The notes: generated by a model not told the origin, from the letters alone. Numbered from the stretch's first letter, positions 12,963 through 29,591 are shown. The stretch: 37,663 bases of DNA from Methanothrix sp. (GCA_003162615.1 PMNG01000162.1:1-37663), one strand, 5' to 3'. Translations and numbers: made by a program.

Positions 12963-14576
12963 ATGAAATTCGATCCAGCCCAGATCAGAGAGGCCGCTAG
13001 TCAGGACTTCGACAAAGCCTGGCGGCAGGGCGGTGTTTATCTCGGACATCCGAAGATCAACGATAGATACCCCAGACGTAGCTGTAACTACGGCGAGCCT
13101 CACCCCATCTTTGACACAATTCAAAGACTGCGAGAGGCCTACCTGAGGCTGGGATTTTCTGAAGCCATGAACCCGGTGATGGTCGACGCTTTGGACGTCT
13201 ATCGTCAGTTTGGGTCGGAAGCGTTGGCGGTCTTGGATAGATGCTTCTACCTTGCTGGTCTGCCCAGGCCGGATATCGGCATCTCGGATGATAGAATTGC
13301 CCAGATCAATCGGATTCTCAATAGAGAGCTTTCTGGAGACGAAGTAGAAGCTGTCCGCCAGATCCTCCACGGTTACAAGAAGGGCAAGGTTGAGGGCGAC
13401 GACCTGGTTGGGGAGATCTCTCACGCCGTAAACGCCAACGATGCTCTTGTATCCACAATCCTTGAAGAAGTCTTTCCTGAGTTCAAAGGCCTTAAAGCCG
13501 AGGCAACCACGAGGACGCTACGTAGCCACATGACCTCCGGCTGGTTTTTGACGCTGTCCAATCTGCACTACCGTCAGAAGACGCCGGTGCGGCTGTTCTC
13601 CATAGACAGGTGTTTTCGCAGGGAACAGGCGGAGGATGCGGCCAGGCTCATGAGCTATCACTCGGCCAGCTGCGTAATCATGGACGAAGAGGTTTCTGTG
13701 GAGGACGGCAAGGCTATGGCCGATGGCCTCCTGAGCCAGTTCGGATTCCAGAAGTTCAGGTTCCAGCCGGACGATAAGAGGAGCAAGTACTACACTCCTG
13801 GAACTCAGATAGAGGTGTATGCCTTTCATCCCGCACTTGTCGGCTCGGCCACTAAATACGGCAGCGGCTGGGTGGAGGTGGCCACCTTCGGCGTATACTC
13901 GCCTACCGCCCTGGCACAGTACGACATACCCTATCCCGTCATGAACCTGGGCCTGGGTGTCGAGCGAATAGCAATGATTCTGCATAACTCCAAGGACCTC
14001 CGTGCCCTGTCCTACCCCCAGTTCCAGGCAGACTGGGAGCTGACGCCTAGGGAGATGGCTCAGATGATCAGAGTGGATAAGTCGCCTTCGACACAAATCG
14101 GTCAAATCATCTCAGAGGCCATCGTCCAGACCTGCATCGAGCACGGAGATACGCCTTCGCCTTGCGAGTTTCCGGCCTGGGAGGGCCAGCTTTACGGTAG
14201 AAACGTAAAGGTGTCGGTGGTTGAGCCGGAGGAGAACACGAAGCTGTGCGGCCCTGCCTACCTGAACGAAGTAGTAGTCTACAAGCAGAATGTGATGGGC
14301 ATTCCCAGGACCTCTCGCTGGGATGATGCCTTCGAGGAAGGAGTGACTACCGGCATAAAGTACATAGATGCCTTTGCAGAGCTAGCCGCATCCGAAGTTG
14401 AGGCCTCTGCTCTGAACGGAAAGGATTCCGAGACAAGGGTGAAGATCGTTCGGACGCCGGGAGAGATAAACCTTAAGATCGATCCGGCTCTTGAGCGGTA
14501 CATCACAAGCCACAAGCATAAGATGGATCTGCGCGGGCCGGTCTTCGTCACTGTTCGCAGCAAGATAGTAGAATAA
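12963..14576 (+). CDS. sepS: O-phosphoseryl-tRNA(Cys) ligase (SepRS)
   Basis: MKFDP...HPIFDTIQRLREAYLRLGFSE, class II motifs (LRSHMTSGWFL, FSIDRCFRRE, GLGVERIAMI), and a ~537-aa length typical of SepRS. Confidence 0.9.
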   Translation: MKFDPAQIREAASQDFDKAWRQGGVYLGHPKINDRYPRRSCNYGEPHPIFDTIQRLREAYLRLGFSEAMNPVMVDALDVYRQFGSEALAVLDRCFYLAGLPRPDIGISDDRIAQINRILNRELSGDEVEAVRQILHGYKKGKVEGDDLVGEISHAVNANDALVSTILEEVFPEFKGLKAEATTRTLRSHMTSGWFLTLSNLHYRQKTPVRLFSIDRCFRREQAEDAARLMSYHSASCVIMDEEVSVEDGKAMADGLLSQFGFQKFRFQPDDKRSKYYTPGTQIEVYAFHPALVGSATKYGSGWVEVATFGVYSPTALAQYDIPYPVMNLGLGVERIAMILHNSKDLRALSYPQFQADWELTPREMAQMIRVDKSPSTQIGQIISEAIVQTCIEHGDTPSPCEFPAWEGQLYGRNVKVSVVEPEENTKLCGPAYLNEVVVYKQNVMGIPRTSRWDDAFEEGVTTGIKYIDAFAELAASEVEASALNGKDSETRVKIVRTPGEINLKIDPALERYITSHKHKMDLRGPVFVTVRSKIVE

Positions 14577-14585
14577 ATAGAGTTA

Positions 14586-15278
14586 TTGTGGGGGGCTCAG
14601 AAGTTGAAGGTAGCATCTTCTAACCAGGAGGGCAAGAGGGCAGCGGGAGAGTCTGCTGCCTGTCTGATCAAAGACGGAATGGTGGTTGGCCTAGGCACTG
14701 GATCGACAGTGGCCTGGACGATTCGAAAGGTCGGAGAGATGGTCGAATCAGGACTCGATATCCTGGGAGTGGCTACGTCTTATCAGGCCGAGGCCCTGGC
14801 CATTGAGTCGAGCATAAGGCTCACGACTCTGAGCCAGCATCCTGTTCTTGACCTGGCCATCGATGGAGCCGATCAGGTAGATGCGAATCTTTTTGCCATA
14901 AAGGGCGGTGGAGCGGCCCACACTCGCGAGAAAGTCGTCGCCTGCTCGGCCAGGAAGTTCGTGGTTGTGGCTGATGAATCTAAGTACGTAGAAACGCTGA
15001 GCCACCCGGTGCCGGCGGAGGTGCTGCCCTTTGCAGCGAGGCTGGTGGAGCGGCGGCTGAAGGAGCTGGGCGGCGTGCCGGTGCTACGCCTCGGCAAGAT
15101 GAAGGACGGGCCGGTGATCACGGACAATGGGAACTTCGTGATGGATGTGGACTTTGGGGCAATCGTTGATCCGGCAGCACTGGCAGCGAAGCTGTGCGGG
15201 ATTCCTGGACTGGTGGAGCACGGGATATTCGACAATCTGGATGAGCTGCATCTGGCAAGAAGGGCGGGGTGGAGATAA
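14586..15278 (+). CDS. rpiA: Ribose-5-phosphate isomerase A
   Basis: [33 protein letters not shown] and [10 protein letters not shown]...GLVEHGIF. The start is uncertain: TTG at 14586 or TTG at 14604. Confidence 0.85.
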
Positions 15279-15306
15279 TTAGAAGAAGAGGATGAAGAGT
15301 AGGTCC

Positions 15307-15311
15307 TTTTT
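15307..15311 (+). terminator. Oligo-T tract downstream of rpiA (possible archaeal terminator)
   Basis: A TTTTT run sits ~30 nt after the rpiA stop, inside an imperfect inverted repeat (GAGGATGAAGAG ... CTCTCATCCTC). Confidence 0.25.
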
Positions 15312-15361
15312 GGCCTCATTCATCTTTGCCTCTCATCCTCCTCCCCGAATCTTGTGGAAAA

Positions 15362-15371
15362 TTAAAATATA
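15362..15371 (+). promoter_or_regulatory. TATA-box-like element upstream of the hicB-like ORF
   Basis: TTAAAATATA is centred ~27 nt before the ATG at 15393, which would give a leaderless or near-leaderless mRNA. Confidence 0.3.
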
Positions 15372-15392
15372 CTGCAAGCGAATTTAGAACCA

Positions 15393-15599
15393 ATGGCTGC
15401 TCAACCGTCAACCGTAGAATTCTATGAAAGGCGTCCTCTGCAGGAATTTGCCGTAGGTGTCAGGAAATTCGTTCCTCTTAGGGTCACCAATCTGCAGGTA
15501 GACTACGATGACGGCCTCTGGATTGTAAGTTTGCCTCCTCTGGATGCAACAGGAAGCTCACAGGATTTTCTGGAAGCTAAGAGATTGTTATTTGAGTAG
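15393..15599 (+). CDS. Small protein, possible HicB-like antitoxin
   Basis: 68 aa. DDGLWIVSLPPLDATGSSQDFLEAKRLL resembles the HicB N-terminal pattern (g-y-a-x-P-l-g-c-x-G-x-t-EA). It lies upstream of a HicA-like relic. The call is weak and rests on pattern plus context. Confidence 0.35.
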   Translation: MAAQPSTVEFYERRPLQEFAVGVRKFVPLRVTNLQVDYDDGLWIVSLPPLDATGSSQDFLEAKRLLFE

Positions 15600-15703
15600 A
15601 TAGACTTCTTATGGAATGAGTATGTTCTTTGCCCGGAGGAAGAGCTGGGCGAGACCGGTAAGGTGCTAAGAGATTTGCTCTTGGAATTGTTTTCGGTGAG
15701 CTG

Positions 15704-15954
15704 ATGGCTTCGGCGCTGAGCCAGGATGAGATTGAGGCAGGGCTTGCGAGAAAGGGCTTTTGCCGCAGCCACACTGATCACAGATATTTTATCCTTTATG
15801 TCAACGGGAAGAAGAGGCCGCCACTTTTCTGAGCCACGGGAAGAACCGGGATATCGGTGCACCCTTGCTCAATGCCATGGCCAAGGAGCTTGGCCTCACT
15901 ACCAGAGACTTTGTTGATCTTGTAAAGTGCCCTTTGAGCACTGAGGAATTCTAG
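15704..15954 (+). pseudogene. HicA-like toxin gene with an internal frameshift
   Basis: From the ATG at 15704 the frame reads MASALSQDEIEAGLARKGFCRSHTDHRYFILYVNGKKRPP, then a stop. Another frame continues TFLSHGKNRDIGAPLLNAMAKELGLTTRDFVDLVKCPLSTEEF*. Joined, this gives ~84 aa with the HicA pattern: KGF..H at the start and H-x(3-5)-l-x-x-l-l-x-x-i-x-k-q-l-G-L later. One base appears lost near 15827-15832. Confidence 0.5.
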
Positions 15955-16201
15955 GCAGCAAAAAAGGAAAGGCTGGCCAGTGGTCTGCGGATATTGAGGC
16001 GGGGTTGAAATCAAATATTCACAATGAAGTTGCCTCGGCAAGCACTCGGTCTCGGATGTACCAGTGAAGTAGTTATTATCAAAAAAGTTCCCGCTCTCGT
16101 GTGCAGTTGATGTGGGGAGGCCAAAGGCATTAATTCCGTTCGTGTGGTAAAGTGGGGGAAATACAAGGGAATGGACATGCTCATCCACGCACATGTGCGG
16201 G

Positions 16202-16657
16202 TCATGTCCATCGATCTAAGTTTTGCTCATCCTGTTTCTTGGCTCTTAGCAAATCAATCACTATATCCTCATTCAGATCGTTCTCAACTTCTTGTTCCAT
16301 CAATTTGTCCGCGACGAAGCTCAGCAGCTTTGTTGGCGGTACTGGCTTTTGCAGATACCCGTCTGCTCCCCAGTTGAGAGATTTGATTGCATTTTCAAGT
16401 GTGGCATAACCTGTAACCATGATTTTCTTTGCACCTGGATTGATTAGGTTAAACTGTTTTATGAGTTCAGTGCCTTCCAAATCCGGAAGCTTGATATCTA
16501 TTAACGCCAGGTTATAGTAGTTGGCTTGATATTTCTCTATAGCTTCCTGACCATTTTCTGCAGTGCTTACTCTGTACCCTTTGAGTTCCAGAATAGCCGA
16601 AAAGCTCTTGAGAATTCCCTTGTCATCGTCTACTACTAGTATAAATTTCTTGTCCAT
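16202..16657 (-). CDS. Stand-alone response regulator receiver protein (CheY-like)
   Basis: ILVVDDD, phospho-acceptor LALIDIKLPD, MVTGY and GADGYLQKP. There is a ~30-aa acidic tail and no output domain. It overlaps the kinase gene by 22 nt. Confidence 0.9.
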   Translation of the reverse strand: MDKKFILVVDDDKGILKSFSAILELKGYRVSTAENGQEAIEKYQANYYNLALIDIKLPDLEGTELIKQFNLINPGAKKIMVTGYATLENAIKSLNWGADGYLQKPVPPTKLLSFVADKLMEQEVENDLNEDIVIDLLRAKKQDEQNLDRWT

Positions 16658-19482
16658 GTTTTATCATCCTGTGGTATCTCGATAGTCACTTCAGTCCCTG
16701 CGTTCACCTTGCTGGCAACGACTATACTACCTCGGTGGGCCTCCACCAGACGTTTGCAGATCGCAAGCCCTAAACCAATGCCTTTAGATTTCGTGGTGAA
16801 TAGAGGTAAAAATAGCTTGGGAATGTTTTCATTAGGTATGCCCGCTCCTTCATCTCTGATAGTCAAGACGACTGATTCTCCTTTACGGATGGCAGTTATC
16901 GTTATTTGACCTCCCTTTGGCATGGACTGGATCGAGTTGTTGACCAGGTTTACGATCACCCGTTTGATTTTTTCTGGATCGACGGTGATCTCTGGTAATC
17001 CGTTTTCTACTTCAGTAGATACTTTAACACCCTCAGGAATTTCTAAAAAATTTATCGCATTGCTGATTAGCTGATGAATGTCTGTTTCTACTAATTCGAG
17101 ATTCAGCGGTCCTGCATAACTCTGGAGATCGGATACTATCTGGTTCATATAGCTACAGCTCTTCTCGATTTCGTCGAGGATCTCGGTAATGCTGAGCTGA
17201 CTCTCTACTAGTGGAGTGTCTGCCGAAATCAACATCTCCTTGGCCAAATATACCATAGATATTACAACCTGAAGCGGGTTTCTAAGGTCATGGCCGACCA
17301 TGGTAGCCATCTCACCTAAGGTTGCCAGGCGGGCAGCTTGCTGGAGTTGTTTCGTACGCTCGTCGACCAGCTCCTTGAGGCTCTCAGAATACCGTTTGAG
17401 CGCCTCTTCATCACGTTTTCTATCGGTGATGTCCCTTGATATACTCAGAGTACTGGTCACTTTGTTCGTTTCAAGAATGGGAACAAGATAAGTTTCGTAC
17501 ACACTCATGATGCCGTGGTTCTCTTTGCCAGTGTGCTCAAACTTGCGTAATTTCCCAGTTTTCTTGCACTCGTCAATCTCCTTTTTAAATATCTCTTTGG
17601 ACTGTGTTGAAAGATATTGGTATACACTGCTCCCGATGACCTCTTTTTTCGTGAAACCCTTCGGATAGTGATTCAGGAACGAGAATCCCCCCTCCAGGTC
17701 GAGCAATGAGATATAATCAGGCAAGACACTTACAAGAGAACGCCATTTCTCTTCGCTCTCACGCAGTGCCTTCTCGATCTGCTTGCGCTCGGTAATGTCA
17801 TCGACTACCGTCAGGATCTGTATTAGCTCTCCATTATTTTCTCTAATAGCCGATAAAGTAATATTGCACCAGATCTGGCGACCGTCCTTCCTCATATAAC
17901 GTTTTTCCATCTGGTACTTGTCAATCTGCCCCGTGATCATCTGCCGAACCGGATCGAGGTTCCTGTCGAGGTCCTCGGAAAAGGTGACATCTTTATAATG
18001 CTTCTGCGGAAGCTCCTCTTTGTCATAACCCAGCATCTCCGATAAAGCCGCATTGCAGTCCTCGATAAAGCCCATCTCATTTGCGATGACAATGCCCATG
18101 CCAGCTCTATCAAAGATTGCTCTGAACCGATCCCTGCTTACTCTTAATTTTTCCTCAGCTCGCTTGCGGTCGGAAATGTCTCTCCATATGGCCAGGATAG
18201 CCTTTTTGCCTTCATAATGATCGACCAAACGAGCATGAACCTCTGCGGGTAGGAGCCTTCCATCTTTCGTCTTTTGAACAGATTCAAAAATATTAGACCC
18301 TTTATTCAAAACTTCCTTAAGTCTACCATTTACCTGACGAGCGTTCTCCCGAGAATCAATGTCTTCAGGAGTCAATTTGAGTAGTTCATCCCTTGAATAC
18401 CCGAGTCGTTTGACGGCTTCATCGTTGACTTCCTGAAAATGACCTTCAAGATCAAGTATCACAACGGCATCTGCCGCGCTATTGAACAGAACTCGGTACT
18501 TCTCTTCGCTCTCCATCAACGCCTTCTCGGTCCGCTTGTGCTCGGTTAGGTCTCTCGCAAAAACGGCAACACCAGTGATTTCCCCGTGCGAATCTCGAAC
18601 CGGGTTATGCGATATCTCGAAGTAACGCCGCGATAGAGCTTTATCTCCGGCGCACGCCTCCAATGTTAACGATTCACCACAAAGCGTCCGGTCGATGTTC
18701 ATCTGGGCGCTAATACGGTTATCGATGTTAGTATGGTAATCAAGAATGCTATGCCCGATCTCGATATCAGCACCAAATAGCGTCTTCATCACCTCAGCGT
18801 GCTGCGAGTTGAAGCTCGTGTAACGATATTTGCGGTCTACCGAGAAGATAGGCCCCTTCGAGCTTTCGATTACTGCTTTCAGCACTGCACTCTGCTGTGC
18901 TAGTTTTTCCTCAGCGTTCTTGCGTTCAGTTATATCGATGACGGCGATCCGGCATTGTCTACCGTTCGGCGAACTATCCTCGGCGGCTGTGCTCTCGATG
19001 CGGGCATAAACTGTAGGCTTACCTTCTTTTAGGAGATTCATTTCACACGTTTTCTTAAAGGAGGTCTCAAACGCCGATTTACAGAAATCATCAAAACGAG
19101 AACGGTCCTTGGGCGCGACGCACAGCTGAAAATGCCTGTTCATCAAGTTGCGCCTCTCAATGCCGAGCAGCGCGGCTCCCGCCTTGTTTACCTCCTGGAT
19201 TATTCCCTGCTGATCGATGGCGAAAAGCCCGATGGGCGCAAAGTCGTAGAGATCGGAGTACTTTGTCAAAGCATCTTCCATCTCTAGCTTGGCGCGCTTC
19301 AGCTCTTCGTTTTGCATCTCCAGTTCAATCTGATGAACCTGCAGTTCGTGAACCAGAGCCATTGCGTCTACGCCATCCGCTGTCTTGGAACCGACCGGAC
19401 CGCTTTGGCTGGCCTTCAAACGCTCCTCTGCATGGCGACGCAGGTTACCGTTCTGGTTCGATTCAGCTTTCTCCTTCTTCAT
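16636..19482 (-). CDS. Multi-PAS sensor histidine kinase
   Basis: N-terminal coiled coil with LVHELQVHQIELEMQNEELK. At least five PAS modules are separated by DITERK/DISDRK...AEEKL linkers. H-box MVGHDLRNPL. HATPase_c N and G boxes (LVNNSIQS, DEGAGI, GIGLGLAI). Confidence 0.9.
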   Translation of the reverse strand: MKKEKAESNQNGNLRRHAEERLKASQSGPVGSKTADGVDAMALVHELQVHQIELEMQNEELKRAKLEMEDALTKYSDLYDFAPIGLFAIDQQGIIQEVNKAGAALLGIERRNLMNRHFQLCVAPKDRSRFDDFCKSAFETSFKKTCEMNLLKEGKPTVYARIESTAAEDSSPNGRQCRIAVIDITERKNAEEKLAQQSAVLKAVIESSKGPIFSVDRKYRYTSFNSQHAEVMKTLFGADIEIGHSILDYHTNIDNRISAQMNIDRTLCGESLTLEACAGDKALSRRYFEISHNPVRDSHGEITGVAVFARDLTEHKRTEKALMESEEKYRVLFNSAADAVVILDLEGHFQEVNDEAVKRLGYSRDELLKLTPEDIDSRENARQVNGRLKEVLNKGSNIFESVQKTKDGRLLPAEVHARLVDHYEGKKAILAIWRDISDRKRAEEKLRVSRDRFRAIFDRAGMGIVIANEMGFIEDCNAALSEMLGYDKEELPQKHYKDVTFSEDLDRNLDPVRQMITGQIDKYQMEKRYMRKDGRQIWCNITLSAIRENNGELIQILTVVDDITERKQIEKALRESEEKWRSLVSVLPDYISLLDLEGGFSFLNHYPKGFTKKEVIGSSVYQYLSTQSKEIFKKEIDECKKTGKLRKFEHTGKENHGIMSVYETYLVPILETNKVTSTLSISRDITDRKRDEEALKRYSESLKELVDERTKQLQQAARLATLGEMATMVGHDLRNPLQVVISMVYLAKEMLISADTPLVESQLSITEILDEIEKSCSYMNQIVSDLQSYAGPLNLELVETDIHQLISNAINFLEIPEGVKVSTEVENGLPEITVDPEKIKRVIVNLVNNSIQSMPKGGQITITAIRKGESVVLTIRDEGAGIPNENIPKLFLPLFTTKSKGIGLGLAICKRLVEAHRGSIVVASKVNAGTEVTIEIPQDDKTWTRNLY

Positions 19483-19529
19483 AATCCTCTTGCGATCTTA
19501 AGGACTGCTAATTGCGATACGCGATGAAC

Positions 19530-19757
19530 TTCTATGGCTAAGGAGATCAGGTGCTTGCAAAGAGCCCTCTCCTAGCTCCGTGATCCTGACTGAGGCTGCG
19601 TCCCGGTTTAATCTCTACAAGGATATCCAGGTCGCTTTCGAGCCGGGCTTTTCCTCTGGCCACGGAACCGATGAACCCGAAGGTTACGGGCACCATGATT
19701 GGTGGCTATGGCCAGAATCTCCTGGCGCTTGGATTTCAGCAACTATTCAATTTTCAT
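19530..19757 (-). pseudogene. MNT-type (minimal nucleotidyltransferase, HEPN-MNT antitoxin-like) gene relic with in-frame stop and frameshifts
   Basis: The minus strand from 19757 reads MKIE*LLKSKRQEILAIATNHGARNLRV. A second frame reads FIGSVARGKARLESDLDILVEIKPGRSL (the GS-x-ARG-x(n)-SDLD-l-l-V nucleotidyltransferase signature). Further frame changes follow. No HEPN partner is present. Confidence 0.5.
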
Positions 19758-19782
19758 GGGCATATCTTGTTGGACTCTGCAG

Positions 19783-19939
19783 TATAATAAAACGCACAGA
19801 AATTTAAAAGTATTCGTTTCCGGCTGGGCAGGATTACATTGATCCAACTATCGAGGACTTGGAGGCGCTGGCGGCGAGGTTTTGTCCGATTATGCGTGTT
19901 GCGTAACAGGATATTTCGACAACCTGGATGAACTGCATC
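19783..19939 (+). repeat. Repeat copy A: 39-nt leader plus degraded copy of the rpiA 3' end
   Basis: 19783-19821 is TATAATAAAACGCACAGAAATTTAAAAGTATTCGTTTCC. The sequence that follows translates as DYIDPTIEDLEALAARFCPI...(stop, frameshift)...[10 protein letters not shown]. Compare the rpiA C-terminus, [30 protein letters not shown]. Confidence 0.75.
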
Positions 19940-20191
19940 GCGTCAGTCTTTAAGAGAAGGCCTTGGGCCTCACTATATCAAAATATTTCAATATTATGGA
20001 TTACCCCTCTTCAAAATCTCTTTTAAATAAAGGTTTAGTTGCCAAAAGAACTTCCCCTCAGTGCAATGATTCTGCTTGCACTCATTGTCACTTCTAGTCA
20101 GGCACTCCGGGCGCACACACGCGCGCGGGTCCGGTGCATCGGTTGGCAGTTTTGGGCTGCAGGCAATTCGCTGCTCGAAGCCTCGAGCTAG

Positions 20192-20200
20192 ATATATAAA
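20192..20200 (+). promoter_or_regulatory. TATA-box-like element upstream of vapB
   Basis: ATATATAAA lies ~30 nt upstream of the ATG at 20230. Confidence 0.3.
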
Positions 20201-20229
20201 CTCGCGATGTAAAAGATCTTGGTGACAGG

Positions 20230-20406
20230 ATGATCGTAAAGGCCAGACACAAAAACAATGTTCTGAAGCCTCTTGACAAGCTGGACCTGAAGAAAGGTGA
20301 AGAGGTGGACATCGAATTAAAGGGAAAAAGCCTCTTCGTTCGCCTGAAAGGATGGAAGATAGACTCTCAATCCCTAAAGGATGAGTTGAGAGAGATCAAT
20401 GGCTAG
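20230..20406 (+). CDS. DUF104-type (AF2212-like) antitoxin, VapB-like
   Basis: 58 aa, below the ORF-track cutoff and translated by hand: MIVKARHKNNVLKPLDKLDLKKGEEVDIELKG.... It carries the N-G-V-L-K-P-L-x-K-V-D-L-K-E-G-E signature of DUF104 antitoxins. It overlaps the PIN ORF by 8 nt. Confidence 0.6.
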   Translation: MIVKARHKNNVLKPLDKLDLKKGEEVDIELKGKSLFVRLKGWKIDSQSLKDELREING

Positions 20407-20776
20407 ATTTTTTGGGATACTTACGCGCTTATCGAGCTTCTCCAGGGAAACCCTAACTACGAGGGCTATTTCTCAGGCAGATCTTGTTACTACCGAATTT
20501 AACGTTCTTGAGCTGACGTATGCTTTGTTTAGGGATTTCGGACGCGATGAGGCTGCAAATGTTATCACCTTTATAAGATTCAAGATCGAGATTGTGCCTA
20601 CAGAGGACTCGGACTACCTGAATGCTTCCGAGTTCATGCCGTCCGCAAATCGGACCGGAAAGAAGCTCTCCCTTGTTGAGGCCCTTGGATATTCATATTC
20701 GAGAAAGCTCGGAATAAAATTTCTAACCGGAGACAAAGAGTTCATCGAGATGGAAAACGTAGAGTACGTTAAGTAG
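20399..20776 (+). pseudogene. PIN-domain (VapC-like) toxin gene with two compensating frameshifts in the N-terminal catalytic segment
   Basis: The annotated frame gives MARFFGILTRLSSFSRETLTTRAIS, which is not PIN-like. It then gives QADLVTTEFNVLELTYALFRDFG...SLVEALGYSYSRKLGIKFLTGDKEF...NVEYVK, which is PIN-like. The PIN N-terminus (F)WDTYALIELLQGNPNYEGYFS is encoded at 20410-20475 in another frame. The frame is entered at a T6 run (20410-20415) and left near 20473-20480. Confidence 0.6.
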
Positions 20777-20797
20777 GGAACCAGAGGAGTTCTCAGT

Positions 20798-21592
20798 ATG
20801 TCGCTTTTCGCTCAACAACTGAATACCAACTCATCGGATCGAGGTACCATAGTTTTTTTGCATGGCGGCGGAATAAGCGGCTGGTCATGGCGTCCGGTGG
20901 CCGAGCTTTTGACAGAATATGAAAGCCTGATTGTTGATTTGCCCGGACAAGGGCAAAGTATTGGAATCGGGCCGTTCACTATGAAACTGGCTGCCAATGA
21001 GGTTTCAAAAATTATCGATGAGCGAACTTCTGGAGGTGCGCATGTCGTCGGGCTATCGCTAGGCGCGCAGGTTATAATCCAATTGATGGCCATGAATCCG
21101 GAAATCATCAAAAGCGCTTTTGTGAGCGGCTGTTCCGTGAGGCCGATTCCGATACTCGGCAATTATTATTTCTTGAGAACATTATTCAGCGCCTACGCGC
21201 CATTCAAGAACATACGCTGGCTGGTCCAGATGAACGCCCGTGCCATGGGAGTGCCAGAAGCATACGAAAACGATTTTGCGAAAGACACTCGTTTGATGGT
21301 TCCGGCGAGCCTTGCCCGCATAGTTGCCATAAGTCAATCTTTCATAATTCCGAAGGAGTTGAAAGGAGTTTCAACACGCACGTTCATTGCCTTTGGTGAA
21401 AAAGAATTGGATTCAGTTAAAAAATCGGCAATCGATCTGACCCAGGCGCTGCCGAATTCAACCGCTTACAAGGTTATCGGTAGAAACCATGCTTGGCCAA
21501 TCCAATATCCGCAACTCTGCGCCGATGCCATTCGCGCATTTTTGAGCGGCGGCGTTATCCCGGAACAATTTGTCAGGTATGACGGCAATTAA
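20798..21592 (+). CDS. Alpha/beta-fold hydrolase
   Basis: IVFLHGGGISGWSW (oxyanion region), nucleophile elbow GLSLGA, C-terminal NHAW (His). 264 aa. Confidence 0.8.
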   Translation: MSLFAQQLNTNSSDRGTIVFLHGGGISGWSWRPVAELLTEYESLIVDLPGQGQSIGIGPFTMKLAANEVSKIIDERTSGGAHVVGLSLGAQVIIQLMAMNPEIIKSAFVSGCSVRPIPILGNYYFLRTLFSAYAPFKNIRWLVQMNARAMGVPEAYENDFAKDTRLMVPASLARIVAISQSFIIPKELKGVSTRTFIAFGEKELDSVKKSAIDLTQALPNSTAYKVIGRNHAWPIQYPQLCADAIRAFLSGGVIPEQFVRYDGN

Positions 21593-21600
21593 ACAATAAC

Positions 21601-21795
21601 TATAATAAAACGCACGGAAATTTAAAAGTATTCGTTTCCAGGATGGGCGGGAATACATTGGTCCGACCATCGATGACTCGGAGACGCTGCGGCAAGGCTT
21701 TGCTCGAATTTCCGGACTGTTGGAGCACGGGATATTCGACAACCTGGACGAGCTGCATCTGGAAAGAGCGGGCGAAGTGGAGATAATCAGGAGGA
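21601..21795 (+). repeat. Repeat copy B: 39-nt leader plus copy of the rpiA 3' end including its stop region
   Basis: 21601-21639 is identical to copy A's leader except for one base. 21714-21763 has 4 mismatches in 50 nt against rpiA 15207-15256 (hand alignment). It translates as ...[49 protein letters not shown]. Confidence 0.8.
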
Positions 21796-21837
21796 AGGGG
21801 TGAAAATGGGGGCCTCTCCCATGAAGGCTCATGTCTC

Positions 21838-22656
21838 TTGTATGATGGAACTGAGAGAAAACTCTTGAATAGTCTAGAAATCGGGTATTGCAGCGTCATT
21901 TTGGACGCATTTGAAGGAAAAATTATGGATGTCACGATCCTTTACCGTATGGTTAAAGCCACCGCGGAATCCGCTTCGAAAGCGCTGGACCCTTGCATTG
22001 GTTCGAGCCATAATTTCTATGATTACGGCGGCTATCCAGTTTATATAGAACGGTATAACATGTACCAGCATCTAACTGTCGAGCTCTTTGGTGGTGAAGC
22101 GCAAGCGCTCTTCCCCCAATTGCTTCCAGGGTCCTGGAAAGATCCATCTGAAGAGAATGGCAGAATGTGGCGCACACATTTGGAGAACGTTGCAGTGCGT
22201 CTTGGCGATCTTGAAGCTTACTTGAGATCGAAACTAGGCGACACAGATCGACGTGTACAATCAGTTGTCGACTTGGTTGAAGCTCATCTCCGTCCATCGA
22301 TCTTCAAAGTTCCGGACAAAGAAAGAGAAATTCAAGATATTCTTGAGACTATATTTCATGTTAGGGATCTTCCATACCTTCGAGAGAAAGTGCATATCAC
22401 GTATTCTTCAAAGACATATGTGCCTGACTTCACGTTTGACTCCTTGAATTTGGCTGTAGAAGTTAAGCTCTGCAATCGAGAAAGTAGGAAAAAAGAGCTC
22501 ATTGATGAAATCAATGCTGATATCATCGCATATCAAACGAAATACGAGAGTCTCATCTTTATCATCTATGATCTTGGATTCATTCGAGATGTGGCTCAGT
22601 TCAGTGCGGACATTGAGAAAAATCCCAACGTCTATTCAATTGTTATCAAGAAATAA
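21838..22656 (+). CDS. Uncharacterised protein with C-terminal PD-(D/E)xK nuclease-like motif set
   Basis: The C-terminal ~100 aa read KEREIQDILETIF...KTYVPDFTFDSLNLAVEVKLC...LIFIIYDLG. This gives E ... PD ... E-x-K in the spacing expected for the restriction-endonuclease-like fold. The N-terminal ~150 aa are helical with no motif I recognise. A likelier start is the ATG at 21925 (MDVTILY), preceded by GAAGGA. Confidence 0.5.
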   Translation: MYDGTERKLLNSLEIGYCSVILDAFEGKIMDVTILYRMVKATAESASKALDPCIGSSHNFYDYGGYPVYIERYNMYQHLTVELFGGEAQALFPQLLPGSWKDPSEENGRMWRTHLENVAVRLGDLEAYLRSKLGDTDRRVQSVVDLVEAHLRPSIFKVPDKEREIQDILETIFHVRDLPYLREKVHITYSSKTYVPDFTFDSLNLAVEVKLCNRESRKKELIDEINADIIAYQTKYESLIFIIYDLGFIRDVAQFSADIEKNPNVYSIVIKK

Positions 22657-22674
22657 AATGTCGATTATAAAGTA

Positions 22675-22866
22675 TCACATCTGGGCCTCTTCTTCGAACC
22701 TTTTGAACTCTTCCCTGGACCCTTCTCCGAAGGCACTGCAGAATTTTGCGATATCAAACCTTTCCACCTTTAGCCTCAGCCTCTCCCCTTCTTTGAAATC
22801 CACCTTTTCTAGAGGTTTGAGAACTCCGCCTTCATAAACGCATTCAATGGACTTAGAAGCACGCAT
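22675..22866 (-). CDS. DUF104-type (AF2212-like) antitoxin, orphan
   Basis: [34 protein letters not shown] is the DUF104 signature. No PIN or other toxin gene lies downstream on this strand. The gene converges on the 21838..22656 ORF. Confidence 0.65.
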
Positions 22867-23276
22867 TATCCTAGCTCCATCTAAGATTATCTAGTACCCT
22901 TTAATATTCAATCTTGCCGTTAGATTTCAGAATTTGTAGTTAGCATTGCATGACGCAGTAAATGCCGTACGCGATCAGGTACCAAGGGATCAGCATCGGA
23001 ATGGGTGGGTTGCAGACCCTGTGCCAAATGCCAATCAATCCCAATCGCCCCGGCTGCGATCACGATCCAGCCGACGAAGCGATGCAGCGCAATTCGCTGC
23101 CGCCCACTACCAGCCCGACCAAGCCGCCCGACCAAGGGCACATGCCCACGCCTCCCTCATGCATAGAATCTTTGATAACATTGGATTAGCAGCACCAGGG
23201 CCCTCTTCAGCGAGGCGAAGATATTGAGTCGGCAGGAAGCAAAAATAATAATAGCAGCATGTGAAATCAGGCGAAG

Positions 23277-24305
23277 ATGATTTTGACCTTGAGCATGTGC
23301 GAGTCCAGGACCATCTGGTGGGACGACGGCCTGTGGCTGATCGATCAGACCAGGCTTCCAGTTGAGCTCCGGCCGATCAAGATTGAGAGCGTGAAGAATC
23401 TGATCGAAGCCATAACAAGCCTTCGAGTCAGGGGTGCTCCGGCTCTGGGCGCTGCCGGAGCTTACGGTATCGCCCTGGCGGCCCGGCTCTCGTTTACTGA
23501 TAATTCATTCCAGCTTTTGCAAGAGCTGGAGATGGCTGGTGAAATCATCAAGAAGTCCAGGCCAACAGCGGTAAACCTCTCCTGGGGGGTGGACAGAGCT
23601 CTGAGGTCGGTGGTGGTCCAGGATACGGCCGAGGGAATTAGGGAGGCTGCACTTCGCGAAGCAGAGCTCATCGCCGATGAGGACATCGCCATCAACAAGT
23701 CACTGGGCAGGAGAGGAGCACTTCTCCTGGACGACGGAGACAGTGTCCTGACACACTGCAACGCAGGCAGACTGGCCTGCGTGGGCTGGGGAACGGCCCT
23801 AGGGGTCATCCGGTCTGCGGTCGATGCTGGCAAAGAGATTCACGTGTATGCTTGCGAGACCAGGCCCCTGAATCAGGGATCAAGGCTGACTGCCTGGGAG
23901 CTGGTCCATGAGGGCATCGAAGTGACCCTGATCTGCGAAAGCGCCTCGGGAAGCCTCATGAGAAAGGGAAGGATCGATAAGGCAATCGTAGGCGCTGACA
24001 GGATAACAAAAGACGCTGTCTTCAACAAGATAGGAACTTACAATCATGCTGTCCTGGCCAAAGCCCACAAGCTGCCTTTCTATGTCGCGGCCCCTCTGTC
24101 CACCTTCGACCTTGGGCACTGTGAGGCTGATATCACCATTGAAGAAAGAGGATCTGAGGAGCTGTGTTCGGTTGGAGGAGTCCAGCTTGCTCCGACGGGC
24201 GTAGACACATACAACCCTGCCTTTGACGCGACGCCGCTTAATCTTGTAACGGCGCTGATTACTGAGAAGGGCATCTTCAGGCCACCACTGATGCCGTCGG
24301 TGTGA
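23277..24305 (+). CDS. mtnA: S-methyl-5-thioribose-1-phosphate isomerase (aIF-2BI / eIF-2B alpha-beta-delta family)
   Basis: IWWDDGLWLIDQTRLP...SLRVRGAPALGAAGAYGIALA...TAVNL...THCNAG...GTALGV...V.ACETRPLNQGSRLTAWEL...GADRI is the MtnA subgroup pattern. The true start may be the internal ATG giving MCESRT. Confidence 0.85.
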   Translation: MILTLSMCESRTIWWDDGLWLIDQTRLPVELRPIKIESVKNLIEAITSLRVRGAPALGAAGAYGIALAARLSFTDNSFQLLQELEMAGEIIKKSRPTAVNLSWGVDRALRSVVVQDTAEGIREAALREAELIADEDIAINKSLGRRGALLLDDGDSVLTHCNAGRLACVGWGTALGVIRSAVDAGKEIHVYACETRPLNQGSRLTAWELVHEGIEVTLICESASGSLMRKGRIDKAIVGADRITKDAVFNKIGTYNHAVLAKAHKLPFYVAAPLSTFDLGHCEADITIEERGSEELCSVGGVQLAPTGVDTYNPAFDATPLNLVTALITEKGIFRPPLMPSV

Positions 24306-24552
24306 TGGACGATTCTGGTTTCCGATACTGGCGTTCCGATCAATCGATCAAGGAGATAAGGTAGCGCAAGTCTCTGGATTCCAAATTATCAGATTTCGGT
24401 TATCTAGACTTTTTTTATCTAAACCAAATCATCTAGATTCCAATTATCTTAGGTTGTATTGTCTTACAGTCCAGATTCTCTTTTTTCTCGTGAAGAATTC
24501 AAATAGAGATCGACCCATCGATAATTATCTCAGAATCAAACTATTCAAAAAC

Positions 24553-24562
24553 TTTATAAAGA
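24553..24562 (+). promoter_or_regulatory. TATA-box-like element upstream of the TPR gene
   Basis: CTTTATAAAG is centred ~26 nt before the ATG at 24583, which implies a leaderless mRNA. Confidence 0.3.
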
Positions 24563-24582
24563 TATAAGTTAATTCATATTCT

Positions 24583-27003
24583 ATGAATCAACTGGTTGTT
24601 CTTCAAGAGATATACGAATCGTTCTCAAAGGGAAGGGAGGGGCTTACCTCCATCGATCCGAGGTCGATCGAAGGGAGCTGCTCCGTCCAAGTTGCCCAGC
24701 TCTTGGAAGGCTCTAATCAGGGGAAGATTGATGCCGACCTCTGCTCAACTCTTGCCGACTGTCTCCAGGATGTTTACGAAGTGAAGAGACTGGGAGACAT
24801 CTGCAAAAAGGCGGGATTTTTAGAACTTGGCATAAGGTGCTACGACCGGGCGCTATCAATGACCTGGGATAAGGGCGTGAAGGCGGTGCTTCTCAACAAC
24901 CTCGGTCAGGTTTATGCCCAATACGGCGATCTGGGAAGGGCTGTTGCATACTACTGGAAAGCAGTCAAGCGCTTCGAATGCATAGGAGACCGAAGCGGTA
25001 TGGCACACGTCCAGGGAAACTTGGGTTCCGCCTACAGAAGGGCCCACGAATGGGATAAGGCCATTGAGTACTGCTACAAGAGCCTGAGAGCCTTCGATGA
25101 ACTGGAAGACGAGCTTGGAGCTGCCCAGATGACAGGGAGCCTCGGAAGGGTCTACGCAGAGATGGGCGAGTCAAAGCTCGCCGCCAGATATTTCGAGAAG
25201 AGCTTGAAGGCCTTTCAGACGCTCGGAGATAGGAGAAGTGAGGCATGGGTTCTCAACCGGCTAGGTAGGATCAGCTCCGATCAGAGCCTGGATGCCTCAA
25301 TTAAATATTATAACCAGAGTCTGTCCATCTTCGAAGACCTGGGCCAGGGTCAAAGCTCTGGAGTAGTTTTATCCAATCTTGGCCGGGCTTATCTCGACAG
25401 GGGCGAGGCTTCTTTAGCCAGGGACTGCCTCGAGCGATCACTGAAGATCTTGCGGAAGGAGACAAAGCCTGCTTACTGCAACGCGTCTGCTTGGCTGGCT
25501 GCGACCTACAGCATTTTGGCAAAGGAGAACCAGGGGAAGGCAAACACTACTAGATCTGCAGGAGGAATCGAAGGAGACCACAAGTATGAGGAGCTTCTCA
25601 GGCTGGCCTCCCAGTACTATTCGAGGGCAGCAGATCGCTACCGAGATCTTATAGCTGCATCCGGAATCGGGCTTACCGACATTAGCATAGCCGGAGGCGT
25701 TGCAGTACTGCTGTCAATCCACGCGGATCTTCAGGCCGAGCACACAGATAAGGAGGCCGTCAAAATTGCAGATGGTGCCATCTCGAATCTGGAAGAGATG
25801 GCAAGGAATGATGACAAAGAGCTGGAACAGATTGAGGCAATCAAGAGGACTCTGACCGGAATGAGAGGTGTATGGTCTCAAGGACTGCCCAATAGAGAGC
25901 CCTGGAAGCTAGCCAAATCAATTGCCGATTCCATAGAATACCTTATGGAAGGAGTGTCTCTTCCAGGAGAAGCAGGCGTTTGCATCCGCGACGCACTAAG
26001 GAGCCTCAAGTGTGCTATCGAGGTGGAGCAACAAAGGAAAAATCCAACCGAGCTGCTCAAGGCCACAGCATCCCTGCTGAGACAGGCTGAAACAGGATTC
26101 AAGTCAGACTGCGACTGCTTTGGATTTGAGAGCGCGACTGGGTTGGAGAATGCAGCGACGCTGATAGAGCGTCTGATCAGCGCACAGACTGATCAATTCA
26201 AGACCACCTCATCCAACATCAACGAGCTGCTCAACTACCGGACACACAGAAAAGCTATCCTGCAGATCGGTTGGGTGTTGGTGATGAATGCTCTGCCAGC
26301 CTTAGACAGGACTGGTTACGTCTACTCCTGGGATGAATCGATGAACCTGGTGGAGAATAGACCCGCAGGACAACTTCAACAAGGGGCTGCATCAATGGCC
26401 CAACGAACGCAGGAGATTCCAATTCTTGACTTAGGCGCCCTTATTGAAGACGATGCCTTCGAAGAAGCGGAGAGTAGGCCCATAATCGAATGTGTTTCAG
26501 AGCCGGATGAGATGAACGAGCGTGGCACTATTTTGGAGATAGACGCCGGAAGAGCTCTTTTTGCGGATGGGCCCGTTGTTGAGGTAATCCCGGATGGTGG
26601 CAGTCTAGTTCCGACAATGTCACATATTGTATACTCTCCACGCGACTCCCGGGTCCTGGTACAGCACAGAGAGGAGCCAGGGGGGGTCAACAAACCCTAC
26701 CGTTTCGAGCCCGGATCTGCGGTAATAAACCTCGAGGGAATAGACTCTAGATCAGCCGAAGTGATCGATCATTCATCCAATGTCGCTCGGGGCCACTTAA
26801 ACGAGCCCGAAGAATCCGTCAGGGTCGGAGCAACCTGGGAGAACCCGGACTTTTCAGCTTTTCCAGCGATGGGAAACGCGGAAAGACGATACGCCTTCGG
26901 TAATGGACTCTTCACCAGGTCCAATGCCATCAACCTGGTGAAGGCCTTGGCGGTTGTTGTGCTTACCCTCCTGGCTATAGATGTAATACTATATTTGATA
27001 TAG
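24583..27003 (+). CDS. Large tetratricopeptide-repeat protein with C-terminal transmembrane anchor
   Basis: Residues ~60-300 contain repeated 40-aa units of the form LNNLGQVYAQYGDLGRAVAYYWKAVKRFE / QGNLGSAYRRAHEWDKAIEYCYKSLRAFD / TGSLGRVYAEMGESKLAARYFEKSLKAFQ / LNRLGRIS... / LSNLGRAYLDRGEASLARDCLERSLKIL. The last 22 aa, LVKALAVVVLTLLAIDVILYLI, are hydrophobic. Confidence 0.75.
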   Translation: MNQLVVLQEIYESFSKGREGLTSIDPRSIEGSCSVQVAQLLEGSNQGKIDADLCSTLADCLQDVYEVKRLGDICKKAGFLELGIRCYDRALSMTWDKGVKAVLLNNLGQVYAQYGDLGRAVAYYWKAVKRFECIGDRSGMAHVQGNLGSAYRRAHEWDKAIEYCYKSLRAFDELEDELGAAQMTGSLGRVYAEMGESKLAARYFEKSLKAFQTLGDRRSEAWVLNRLGRISSDQSLDASIKYYNQSLSIFEDLGQGQSSGVVLSNLGRAYLDRGEASLARDCLERSLKILRKETKPAYCNASAWLAATYSILAKENQGKANTTRSAGGIEGDHKYEELLRLASQYYSRAADRYRDLIAASGIGLTDISIAGGVAVLLSIHADLQAEHTDKEAVKIADGAISNLEEMARNDDKELEQIEAIKRTLTGMRGVWSQGLPNREPWKLAKSIADSIEYLMEGVSLPGEAGVCIRDALRSLKCAIEVEQQRKNPTELLKATASLLRQAETGFKSDCDCFGFESATGLENAATLIERLISAQTDQFKTTSSNINELLNYRTHRKAILQIGWVLVMNALPALDRTGYVYSWDESMNLVENRPAGQLQQGAASMAQRTQEIPILDLGALIEDDAFEEAESRPIIECVSEPDEMNERGTILEIDAGRALFADGPVVEVIPDGGSLVPTMSHIVYSPRDSRVLVQHREEPGGVNKPYRFEPGSAVINLEGIDSRSAEVIDHSSNVARGHLNEPEESVRVGATWENPDFSAFPAMGNAERRYAFGNGLFTRSNAINLVKALAVVVLTLLAIDVILYLI

Positions 27004-27030
27004 CTTCCCTCCGAACAACAGTGTTGCAGG

Positions 27031-27645
27031 ATGAAGAAGAAACAGCTCGAGATGCAACTGGAGCGACTTAAGGGCTTCTCCAACCCGTCAGCCGATAAGG
27101 AGCAGTACGCAACTCCTGCGTCTGTTGCGACGGATTTGCTTTACCTGGCATACCTGCACGGAGACCTGGAGAGCGTCTGTGATCTGGGGTGCGGGACCGG
27201 TGTTCTGGCCATAGGATCCGCGCTCTTGGGTGCGAAAGTAGTGGGAGTGGAGATAGATCCTCAGTCTCTACGGACAGCCAGAGAAAACGCCACCCGTCTT
27301 GGAGTCGAAGTGGATTTCATAAGGGGCGACGCTAACTCAGTGAGCCTCAAGGGAATCAAAACTGTGGTCATGAATCCTCCTTTCGGGGCGCAGAAAGCCA
27401 GCGCTGGAGATAGAGGGTTTCTCCGAAAAGCTGTGGAGATCGCAGATGTGGTCTATTCCATTCACAACCTGGGAAGCGAAGGGTTCATTAGAAGGATTGT
27501 AGAACCCTGCACTGTTGAAGAGATCTACAGGATAAAGTTTCCCCTTAGAAGATGCTTCGCATTCCACAGCAGGGACGTGAAGACCATAGAGGTTGAGTTG
27601 TACAGAATAATGTGCCGCCGAAACGGCACAACAAGACAGGAATAA
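27031..27645 (+). CDS. SAM-dependent methyltransferase, COG2263 / METTL5-like putative RNA N6-adenine methylase
   Basis: EQYATPA, the SAM motif DLGCGTGVLAIGSALLGA, VGVEID and the catalytic NPPFG. Confidence 0.75.
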   Translation: MKKKQLEMQLERLKGFSNPSADKEQYATPASVATDLLYLAYLHGDLESVCDLGCGTGVLAIGSALLGAKVVGVEIDPQSLRTARENATRLGVEVDFIRGDANSVSLKGIKTVVMNPPFGAQKASAGDRGFLRKAVEIADVVYSIHNLGSEGFIRRIVEPCTVEEIYRIKFPLRRCFAFHSRDVKTIEVELYRIMCRRNGTTRQE

Positions 27646-27694
27646 TCAGTAGGTATCGAACAAGCAGTATTCTAGCTCATTAGAGGAATTCGAG

Positions 27695-28252
27695 ATGGAA
27701 AATAGTTTTGTGCTCCCAGGTGACGTGGTAGGGTCGGCGGAGGAGTTCATCCCAGGCGATTGCACCTATGTCAAGGGAGGGGTAATATACGCAACAACTG
27801 CCGGTCTGTTGAATATCGACGAGAAGAACAAGCAGGCCAGTGTAATTCCCAAGACCAACGCCCCTGCCAAGCTTTGTCAGGGAGATATCGTTGTAGGCGA
27901 AGTAATAGACATGAAGGAGAGTCTGGTTATAGTTTCGCTGGCCTTCAAGAAAGGTTATGAGGACCGACCAATCTCAGATGAGGAGGCCACGATTCACATC
28001 TCCAACGTTCGGAACTCCTATGTAAAGGACCTGAGGCAGATGTTCTCTGTGCGGGACATTCTCAAGGCCAAGATAGTCGATGAGAAACAACTTCGGTTGT
28101 CAACGGGCGACGAGGATCTAGGCGTTATTAAAGCCTACTGCAATAGATGTTTGACTGGCCTGGTCAAAAAGGATGGAAAGCTGGTCTGTCCGAGCTGCGC
28201 CAACACCGAGACAAGGAAGATGAGTTCATACTACGGACTGGGAGTGGTTTAA
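27695..28252 (+). CDS. csl4: Exosome complex RNA-binding subunit Csl4
   Basis: N-terminal VLPGD..G..EEF.PG, a central S1-like GDIVVGEVIDMKESLVIVSL, and a C-terminal zinc ribbon CNRC...CPSC. Confidence 0.85.
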   Translation: MENSFVLPGDVVGSAEEFIPGDCTYVKGGVIYATTAGLLNIDEKNKQASVIPKTNAPAKLCQGDIVVGEVIDMKESLVIVSLAFKKGYEDRPISDEEATIHISNVRNSYVKDLRQMFSVRDILKAKIVDEKQLRLSTGDEDLGVIKAYCNRCLTGLVKKDGKLVCPSCANTETRKMSSYYGLGVV

Positions 28253-28527
28253 TGGATCTCAAAATAATCAATAAGACTGCCGATGAGATCTCCATAGAGT
28301 TCATTGGAGAGGGCCACACTATCCTAAACCTGCTGCGCACAGAGCTTCTGCTCGACGAGCGTGTCACACTTGCAACCTACGATACCAAATTTCCCGTCAT
28401 GGACAATCCAGTGTTCCGCCTCAAGACATCAGGAGCCGACCCTATGGTCGTTCTGCGTGAGGCCGCGGCAAAGATCATTGGCCAGTGTGATACGTTCAGC
28501 AGTGAGTTTGCGGCTGCCGCCAAATAA
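28252..28527 (+). CDS. rpoL: DNA-directed RNA polymerase subunit L (Rpo11)
   Basis: MDLKIINKTADEISIEFIGEGHTILNLLRTELL.DERV..A.Y...P.....P.F.LKT is the RpoL pattern. Its ATG overlaps the csl4 stop (TAATG). The csl4-rpoL order is conserved in archaea. Confidence 0.8.
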   Translation: MDLKIINKTADEISIEFIGEGHTILNLLRTELLLDERVTLATYDTKFPVMDNPVFRLKTSGADPMVVLREAAAKIIGQCDTFSSEFAAAAK

Positions 28528-28547
28528 CGACGCTGCCAAGCAGCTAA

Positions 28548-29552: not shown

Positions 29553-29591
29553 CGGACTGAGCGTAGATAAATAAGAAGGTAACTAGCGTAA

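Follow-up and report, generated by a model that had tools for sequence, protein, structure and literature searches.

Partial copies of the rpiA 3′ end in a variable toxin-antitoxin island between rpiA and mtnA of Methanothrix

Introduction

How does a housekeeping gene come to be followed by several copies of its own 3′ end, with toxin-antitoxin and signalling genes lying between them? The question is raised by the rpiA locus of a Methanothrix sp. contig (GCA_003162615.1 PMNG01000162.1:1-37663), whose 37,663 nt are called the window hereafter, with positions counted from its start. The original prediction, made from the sequence alone, described two non-functional copies of the rpiA 3′ end (copies A and B) downstream of rpiA, each preceded by the same 39-nt leader, and proposed that integrative elements had inserted serially into rpiA and had since decayed or been mobilised in trans. 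Our analysis leads us to favour, without great confidence, a different origin, in which integrase-independent recombination built the rpiA–mtnA island by stacking alternative rpiA-downstream haplotypes and the resulting repeats then fuelled deletion and reshuffling. The comparison drew on RpiA homologues (75–99% identity) from Methanothrix and Methanotrichaceae metagenome-assembled genomes (MAGs), and the loci and contigs compared carry labels of the form L001.

Reality of the rpiA copies

Copy B is a clear relative of rpiA. Window positions 15201–15260 and 21708–21767 are 90% identical over 60 nt, a wider blastn match covers 21708–21804 of copy B (E = 1.6e-23), and the 4 differences in 50 nt that had been counted by hand are correct. 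Copy A, already described as a broken rpiA relic, is borne out as such, although it is weaker than copy B: it has a 34-nt blastn match at 19906–19939 (E = 1e-5) and two protein pieces in different frames, and its orthologue in the related species L002 is 85% identical. The proposal that both copies begin right at the leader stands only in part. They are surely derived from rpiA from ~19867 (copy A) and ~21685 (copy B), ~62 nt before a 23-nt core that is the best conserved stretch among all rpiA copies, whereas the 45 nt directly after the leader show no significant similarity to rpiA (z = 2.3). A sharp mosaic of the rpiA copies, diverged on the 5′ side and similar on the 3′ side, was considered and largely vanished once gaps were allowed. 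The leader (AAATTTAAAAGTRTTCGTTTCC) occurs exactly twice in the window, before both relics as claimed, with 0 occurrences expected from shuffled sequences; together with copies A and B it makes up the only long-range direct repeats of the window.

Copies A and B are not an assembly artefact, because independent assemblies (L085, L086 and L090–L095) reproduce both copies and both leaders at 99.8–100% identity. The original prediction had named an assembly artefact as a finding that would refute it, and the repeats held up. The confirming contigs, from ENA, JGI, Logan and an NCBI MAG, cover 15102–31592 in whole or in part and represent at least seven independent assemblies, in which all downstream junctions agree to the same degree. 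An array of the same kind is also present in the separately assembled L002. It is therefore very improbable that the repeats arose from collapsed or duplicated contig ends, and what can be said for this explanation concerns one junction only: the rpiA–relic join at 15223–15245 is found in no other assembly, and the seven assemblies that span this region carry an extra block of 1.39 kb, as described next. The count of three rpiA 3′ ends also needs amendment, since a fourth relic is present in the population.

The rpiA gene of the window

The window rpiA had been taken for the functional gene, ending at 15278. This is wrong: the stop codon at 15278 belongs to the relic tail of a hybrid gene. A 1-nt insertion gives the window RpiA the C-terminus HLARRAGWR, whereas the conserved C-terminus GVEIIRRR (with an optional final G) is kept in every homologue. 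In a three-way alignment, the window sequence is that of native L089 rpiA as far as 15245 and, from 15223 onwards, that of the 5′-truncated, stop-containing relic of L090 and L091, which places the switch from native to relic sequence within the 23 nt of the core (15223–15245). From 15246, the window carries the frameshifted tail of this fourth, 5′-truncated relic.

L089, a contig that shares its sample of origin with one of the confirming contigs, has one mismatch to the window in 811 nt through rpiA, departs from it at +21 of the core, and continues with an intact tail followed by HepT and MNT (a nucleotidyltransferase antitoxin) on the opposite strand. Downstream, L090 and L091 agree with the window at 99.85% identity; their match starts only at 15102, with non-rpiA sequence upstream, and the 5′ part of their rpiA copy is interrupted by a stop codon and contains an indel. 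In all assemblies, the relic-type tail (tail1) is joined to the two-gene module that follows it.

The spanning assemblies (n = 7: L102, L103, L112, L114, L116, L118 and L119) have a common order: rpiA with an intact tail, HepT and MNT on the minus strand, leader, a spacer of ~440 nt, the fourth relic with its frameshifted tail, the hicB-like gene, and the response regulator and kinase genes. Measured core to core, the extra HepT-MNT block amounts to 1,389 nt in all seven. Twenty-four contigs encode the exact hicB-like product, and none of them has the direct join of the window; an exact-product look-up of the window RpiA returned no record. Because the spanning assemblies carry the 1,389-nt block and no other assembly has the window's join, the window lacks exactly this block, and its rpiA junction reflects either recombination within the repeat, as a rare deletion variant, or a collapse during assembly. 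Segment 1 of the original prediction (15279–19821) consequently has to be redrawn, as it starts from a hybrid gene and omits the first HepT-MNT block found in the rest of the population.

The rpiA–mtnA slot in related genomes

The gene order in the window is translin-like gene, SepRS, rpiA, an 8-kb stretch of lower G+C content, the mtnA-like IF-2B gene and a TPR gene; Pfam identified SepRS, the translin-like gene and an AP endonuclease upstream of rpiA. The G+C content is 0.44–0.49 in the ~8-kb stretch after rpiA, compared with 0.52–0.57 in the flanks, and its profile extends the island past copy B to mtnA at ~23.2 kb instead of the ~21.8 kb first given. The suggestions that the slot downstream of rpiA is an insertion hotspot and that an empty site, with rpiA directly beside mtnA, should exist were both well founded. 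In seven more distant Methanotrichaceae (L013, L014, L015, L022, L024, L025 and L027), rpiA and mtnA are 30–200 nt apart, and the cargo of close relatives is different, partly shared and reordered. Elsewhere, the slot contains HepT-MNT, a hicBA-like pair, insertion sequence (IS) transposases and the following candidate defence genes: PDC-S54 (PADLOC, E = 5e-120), PDC-S11 (PADLOC, E = 4e-60), an Avs-like STAND protein of 2062 aa, an OLD-like (OLD/TOPRIM) ATPase, a TIR protein and an Eco57I-type methylase. These candidates come from other Methanotrichaceae loci (L088 382–1644; L001 10777–11847; L081 3796–9984; L004, L005 and L017).

L002, whose flanks are ~90% identical to those of the window, has its own array with two leader-plus-rpiA copies (A′ and B′). 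The blocks in the window run rpiA / hicBA-like module, response regulator–histidine kinase pair (RR-HK) / A / vapBC, hydrolase / B / restriction endonuclease (REase)-like gene, and those in L002 run rpiA / RR-HK / A′ / hicBA-like module, MNT / B′ / pentapeptide-repeat gene and, further on, vapBC, hydrolase. The tail of copy A′ together with its hicBA-like module (L002 14161–14995) matches window 15222–16070 at 89.8%. Between the window and L002, the cargo has diverged as much as the flanks (~86–92% identity).

Each partial rpiA copy is followed by what follows full-length rpiA in some other genome, as expected if flank-gene copies mark stacked haplotypes. The arrangement rpiA–HepT-MNT stands alone in L081, L097 and L122, and rpiA–hicB-like alone in L007 and L011; the relic that matches the window from 15102 on leads into the hicB-like gene just as native rpiA does in L007 and L011. 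The population consensus looks like a stack of these two haplotypes, joined at the 5′-truncated rpiA copy. L088 has a relic starting ~340 nt before the core, followed by the PDC-S54 gene, a leader-type copy and a hicB-like gene. In L003, there are two tail copies, and the common 45-nt sequence before each of them is a 3′ relic of MNT fused to the core. This sequence was considered as a separate second arm family that would speak for site-specific integration, and was rejected as such when it proved to be the MNT relic; the junction can be derived by deletion from a copy of the MNT–leader–rpiA′ type. At the site of the fusion (L003 11150–11180), an 18-nt stretch of the antisense strand of MNT, TTCGAGATCCTGCATGAG, agrees with the rpiA core, TTCGACAACCTGGACGAG, in 14 of its 18 nt.

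The partial rpiA copies have four different 5′ end points (~340, 130, 62–110 and 0 nt upstream of the core) and differ in the sequences that precede them. Mismatch maps of near-identical strains place the starts of allele switches at +21, −70 or −185 relative to the core, all in the final 200 nt of rpiA. Switches at −185 and −70 belong to the L081/L097/L083 strains, and the switch between the window and L089 and the L003 junction are both at the core. Such variable switch points, together with the hybrid rpiA, are the recombinant alleles that haplotype stacking predicts for closely related strains; they look like the products of homologous recombination and not of a fixed crossover site.

The leader and the MNT gene

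The leader had been interpreted as the terminal arm of the inserted elements. It sits instead upstream of a gene: on the minus strand, it adjoins an intact MNT gene in L002, L087, L089, L097 and L102, and intact MNT is paired with HepT (Pfam HepT-like, E = 2e-27; NTP_transf_2, E = 1e-14). Intact HepT-MNT pairs are located beside rpiA in L081, L089, L097, L102 and L122. The MNT gene of the window is split in two, with the response regulator and the PAS kinase between its halves; HepT is absent from the window, so that an adjacent MNT and HepT pair is not found there. The leader also occurs without an adjoining rpiA copy, namely in L089, L097, L098 and L102, where unrelated sequence follows, and in L123. 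In a population of only 75% identity, HepT-MNT and rpiA are convergent, the leader has diverged, and there is no further copy of rpiA.

Because the leader adjoins intact MNT and occurs without an rpiA copy, we read it as the upstream or promoter region of the MNT antitoxin gene, not as an element arm, and HepT-MNT as an old neighbour of rpiA. The TATA-like boxes on both of its strands lie at suitable distances to be putative promoters. HepT-MNT is convergent with rpiA in several Methanothrix lineages, with 3–60 nt between the stop codons (L122 1016–1020; L081 3091–3145; L003 10696–10729), and the transcripts of the two probably overlap at their 3′ ends.

Search for mobile-element machinery

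As the original prediction had noted for the window, no integrase is visible at the locus: Pfam detected no integrase or recombinase, intact or relic, in the large ORFs (open reading frames) of the window, in the rpiA neighbourhoods of ~20 species or in >30 strain contexts. This search covered the larger ORFs near rpiA, with small ORFs and distant parts of the genomes outside its scope. A Pfam scan of 67 ORFs downstream of rpiA (L001–L088), run as one alignment, gave the 25 most frequent or strongest families and is weak for rare ones. One of the 67 ORFs matches Cas1 (E = 1.5e-90) and may belong to a CRISPR locus or a casposon; a motif search for it returned nothing, and the ten mid-sized ORFs scanned individually were not Cas1.

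No extrachromosomal carrier of the leader or of the rpiA core appeared among the viral contigs, phages and plasmids searched. The leader and the rpiA core pattern have no exact match in viral contigs, window 19540–21840 has no blastn match in phage or plasmid collections, and all four metagenome matches to the leader are pieces of chromosomal arrays. The literature contains no paper that we could find linking rpiA to an attachment site, in agreement with the earlier statement that such a use is not known to be described.

Several known types of element were considered and rejected. A tRNA-type att site was ruled out by a tRNA scan that found no tRNA gene in the window. A casposon does not fit, because neither Cas1 nor PolB is encoded in the window and no inverted repeats bound the blocks. 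An integron was dismissed because there is no IntI integrase, the repeats are rpiA coding sequence, and Rfam gave no match over 14.5–23.4 kb (no dedicated attC model was run). An SSV-type "suicidal" integrase split by integration was dropped, as the repeat is rpiA sequence and not an integrase gene. A XerA/dif-like site was not convincing by eye, with no Methanothrix dif sequence available for comparison. Retro-copying of the 3′ end of rpiA mRNA was rejected because there is no reverse transcriptase and each copy runs into a different downstream haplotype. One strain has an IS110-family transposase ~6.5 kb upstream of rpiA (L097 2256–3503), which is absent from the window.

Origin of the island

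Repeats, an empty site, permuted blocks, a hybrid rpiA, variable break points and the lack of a recombinase were all observed at this locus, and from them we infer the enzymology and the order of events of stacking. Each partial rpiA copy would be the scar at the left end of a haplotype, made up of rpiA and the genes downstream of it, that once existed on its own. An illegitimate or unequal join would have placed this haplotype behind the resident one; tandem duplication is one possible form of the join, and the other is additive insertion of DNA from a different strain or a sister chromosome, with homology as the anchor on a single side. Direct copies of the rpiA tail and of the MNT gene with its leader would then serve as substrates for homologous recombination, which would delete, duplicate and permute blocks and convert the 3′ end of the working rpiA. 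We favour ordinary recombination because no recombinase was found in any context, because the partial copies have four 5′ end points and the strains switch at +21, −70 and −185, and because the leader occurs without an rpiA partner. The window rpiA counts in the same direction, since native and relic sequence have recombined in it within a 23-nt stretch of identity. The idea of a serially assembled island survives in so far as every block has a partial rpiA copy at its left edge; serial insertion by an integrase is not supported by a locus where no recombinase was found and where 5′ ends and switches vary.

Some observations weigh against haplotype stacking and are more readily accommodated by serial site-specific integration, which we consider unlikely overall. 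Here, small elements with an attP made of the leader and an rpiA 3′ segment would insert at the rpiA core by means of a tyrosine recombinase acting in trans or since lost, each replacing the tail and pushing the earlier one downstream. The blocks are in fact flanked by direct repeats of the target 3′ end, all of them downstream of and co-oriented with rpiA and sharing the same highly conserved core, which is also how attL and attR scars would look, and both the window-versus-L089 switch and the L003 junction fall at that core. The 22-nt centre of the leader is nearly invariant in six copies, whereas the neighbouring sequence is 70–86% identical, and unrelated cargo meets the leader within ~10 nt of the same position in two cases (copy B of the window and L088). 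This conservation suggests that the leader has a function, possibly as a binding site for a recombinase. Between the window and L003, identity is 81–84% for the hicBA-like and MNT modules, compared with 72% for the flanking housekeeping genes, which hints at horizontal movement of toxin-antitoxin modules into the same slot. A recombinase gene in another part of the genome would have escaped the scan, which was confined to the larger ORFs near rpiA. Precedents exist in archaeal elements that integrate into protein genes, sit in tandem and lose their integrase (PMC8371274), and in tycheposon islands, where partial tRNA copies are scattered among decayed elements, older elements are pushed inward and most of the island DNA is element-free. 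Against integration stand the failure to find an integrase or a fragment of one in any of the contexts searched, the size of the blocks (1–4.7 kb, with only toxin-antitoxin, defence or signalling genes) and the lack of matches in viral contigs, phages and plasmids. Moreover, the rpiA-like part of the supposed attP would reach upstream of the core by anything from ~0 to 340 nt, the leader is found without an rpiA copy beside it, and the strain break points vary.

In a third explanation, the blocks are cassettes without a recombinase of their own. They would loop out between rpiA-tail repeats as small circles, and homologous recombination of the Campbell type would return them to rpiA or a relic, whether in their cell of origin or in a different one; the rpiA piece that they had captured would be a portable homology arm, and toxin-antitoxin genes would hold the landed block in place. 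The hicBA-like and RR-HK blocks are permuted between the window and L002 as excision and re-entry of a two-block circle would yield, precisely one block is missing from the window and the crossover lies within the repeat, and toxin-antitoxin modules are closer between species than the flanks are. Yet no circular junction was seen, the crossover would have a short stretch of exact identity (23 nt) to act on, and the equal divergence of cargo and flanks within the window/L001/L002 clade fits vertical descent with rearrangement. We regard this course of events as quite improbable. Equally doubtful is its broader form, in which self-targeting cassettes, with the rpiA piece as homology arm beside the leader, are looped out and re-inserted by host recombination or a trans-acting enzyme; if true, it would constitute a new route of gene capture in archaea, an integron-like collecting of toxin-antitoxin and defence genes at one site in methanogens.

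The locus provides a population-supported case of growth of a defence and toxin-antitoxin island in an uncultured methanogen, without visible mobile-element machinery at the site. Under haplotype stacking, the stacked versions of the island would leave scars of a housekeeping gene, and these scars would then drive deletions and gene conversion that include the 3′ end of the working gene. For annotation, repeats of a gene-end fragment are not automatically att sites of an integrase, and a "functional" gene beside them may turn out to be a hybrid or the product of a collapsed assembly.

Other genes of the island

The features of the locus are listed in Table 1. The two-gene module after rpiA had been described as hicB with a broken hicA. 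The second gene is indeed frameshifted, and the first is damaged too: a stop in frame at codon 69 leaves a 68-aa product, which is encoded in identical form on 24 contigs. The HicA label comes from a Pfam match to HicA_toxin below threshold (E = 0.036), and the partner has no family. The module is intact in L002 and L003.

The multi-PAS kinase varies in its middle part (window 17787–18487; L002 12415–12737; L107), with lengths of 948 aa in the window, 816 aa in L002 and 487 aa in L107. Internal direct repeats ~380 nt apart mark its PAS units, and PAS modules appear to have been gained or lost among the kinases of the relatives. The N-terminus of the PIN (VapC-like) toxin (window 20399–20490) is frameshifted relative to L002. 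Because the first acidic catalytic residue is lost with it, this toxin is probably inactive, while its antitoxin is intact. Outside the island, a gene of the periplasmic-binding/ANF_receptor family (window 1565–2751) is split into abutting ORFs (1565–2047 and 2047–2751), which may reflect a frameshift or a pseudogene.

Table 1. Coordinates of the rpiA–mtnA island and its flanking genes in the window
Feature	Position	Strand	Evidence and remarks
SepRS (O-phosphoseryl-tRNA synthetase), conserved left flank	12963–14576	+	Pfam tRNA-synt_2d, SepRS_C; syntenic in all Methanotrichaceae loci
rpiA as in the window, hybrid	14586–15278	+	Pfam Rib_5-P_isom_A, E = 7e-59; C-termini of homologues; three-way alignment with L089 and L090
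23-nt core GGATATTCGACAATCTGGATGAG, native-to-relic switch interval	15223–15245	+	Conservation among rpiA copies
tail1, relic-type tail and post-stop hairpin region	15246–15340	+	Identical in L090 and L091
Two-gene module ("hicB/hicA")	15393–15953	+	First gene 68 instead of 103 codons; second frameshifted
3′-end relic of MNT gene	16018–16070	-	Matches L081 3485–3537 and L001 12306–12358
Response regulator	16202–16657	-	Pfam Response_reg, E = 5e-26
Multi-PAS histidine kinase	16636–19482	-	Pfam PAS, HisKA, HATPase_c; between the MNT halves with the response regulator
5′ relic of MNT gene	19547–19763	-	Pfam NTP_transf_2; 19595–19763 matches L081 3615–3782
Leader L1, copy 1 (MNT upstream region)	19783–19821		Exact repeat; sequence reading; TATA-like boxes facing both ways
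Copy A, degenerate rpiA 3′ relic	19822–19975	+	Tail partly deleted
AF2212-like antitoxin and PIN toxin (VapBC-like)	20230–20776	+	Pfam AF2212-like, PIN; compared with L002 ORF 17609–17986
Alpha/beta hydrolase	20798–21592	+	Pfam Abhydrolase_6; same context in seven assemblies
Leader L1, copy 2 (without MNT gene)	21601–21639		Exact repeat
Copy B, rpiA 3′ relic	21640–21815	+	Intact native-looking tail ending in ERAGEVEIIRRKG and a stop
PD-(D/E)xK nuclease-like protein (DpnII/MboI-type REase domain)	21838–22656	+	Pfam DpnII-MboI, E = 4e-13; PADLOC Aga_Helical-REase, E = 1e-9
Orphan AF2212-like antitoxin	22675–22866	-	Pfam, E = 1e-18
mtnA-like IF-2B family isomerase, conserved right flank	23277–24305	+	Pfam IF-2B; adjoins rpiA in empty-site genomes

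Comparison with known systems

The locus is a real and reproducible structure and a modest further example of a kind of variable island that is already known, and the tests that could be made do not support its interpretation by an integrase. With chromosomal integron arrays, it shares a single site and small blocks of 1–3 genes, rich in toxin-antitoxin modules and each closed by a conserved repeat of ~150–230 nt. In contrast to such arrays, it has no adjacent IntI-type integrase, its repeats are pieces of a housekeeping gene and not attC hairpins with R′ and R″ motifs, and its genes are in mixed orientation. A relation to HepT-MNT modules is given by the leader, which belongs to an MNT gene whose intact form pairs with HepT, whereas the window keeps only two MNT fragments and two leaders. 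The HepT-MNT module is a passenger and a landmark of the rearrangements, with no sign of driving them.

Islands of decayed tandem elements, such as the tycheposons of Prochlorococcus and the tandem elements of archaea, resemble the rpiA locus in having a fixed hotspot beside a conserved gene, co-oriented scattered copies of its 3′ end, older blocks further in, adaptive or defence cargo, and no mobility genes in most of the island. The rpiA locus differs from them in that the target is a protein gene and not a tRNA gene, that the contexts examined contain no integrase, excisionase or replication gene or fragment thereof, and that there are several 5′ end points and non-fixed strain break points.

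Defence hotspots that are flanked by core genes and exchanged by homologous recombination have been described in bacterial pan-genomes. The rpiA/mtnA pair likewise encloses variable content (PDC-S54, PDC-S11, Avs-like, OLD-like, TIR, restriction-modification, HepT-MNT and VapBC), without mobility genes and with raised diversity at the edge of the flanking gene. Unlike these hotspots, the rpiA locus stacks its contents instead of swapping them, and partial duplicates of the flanking gene remain between the blocks.

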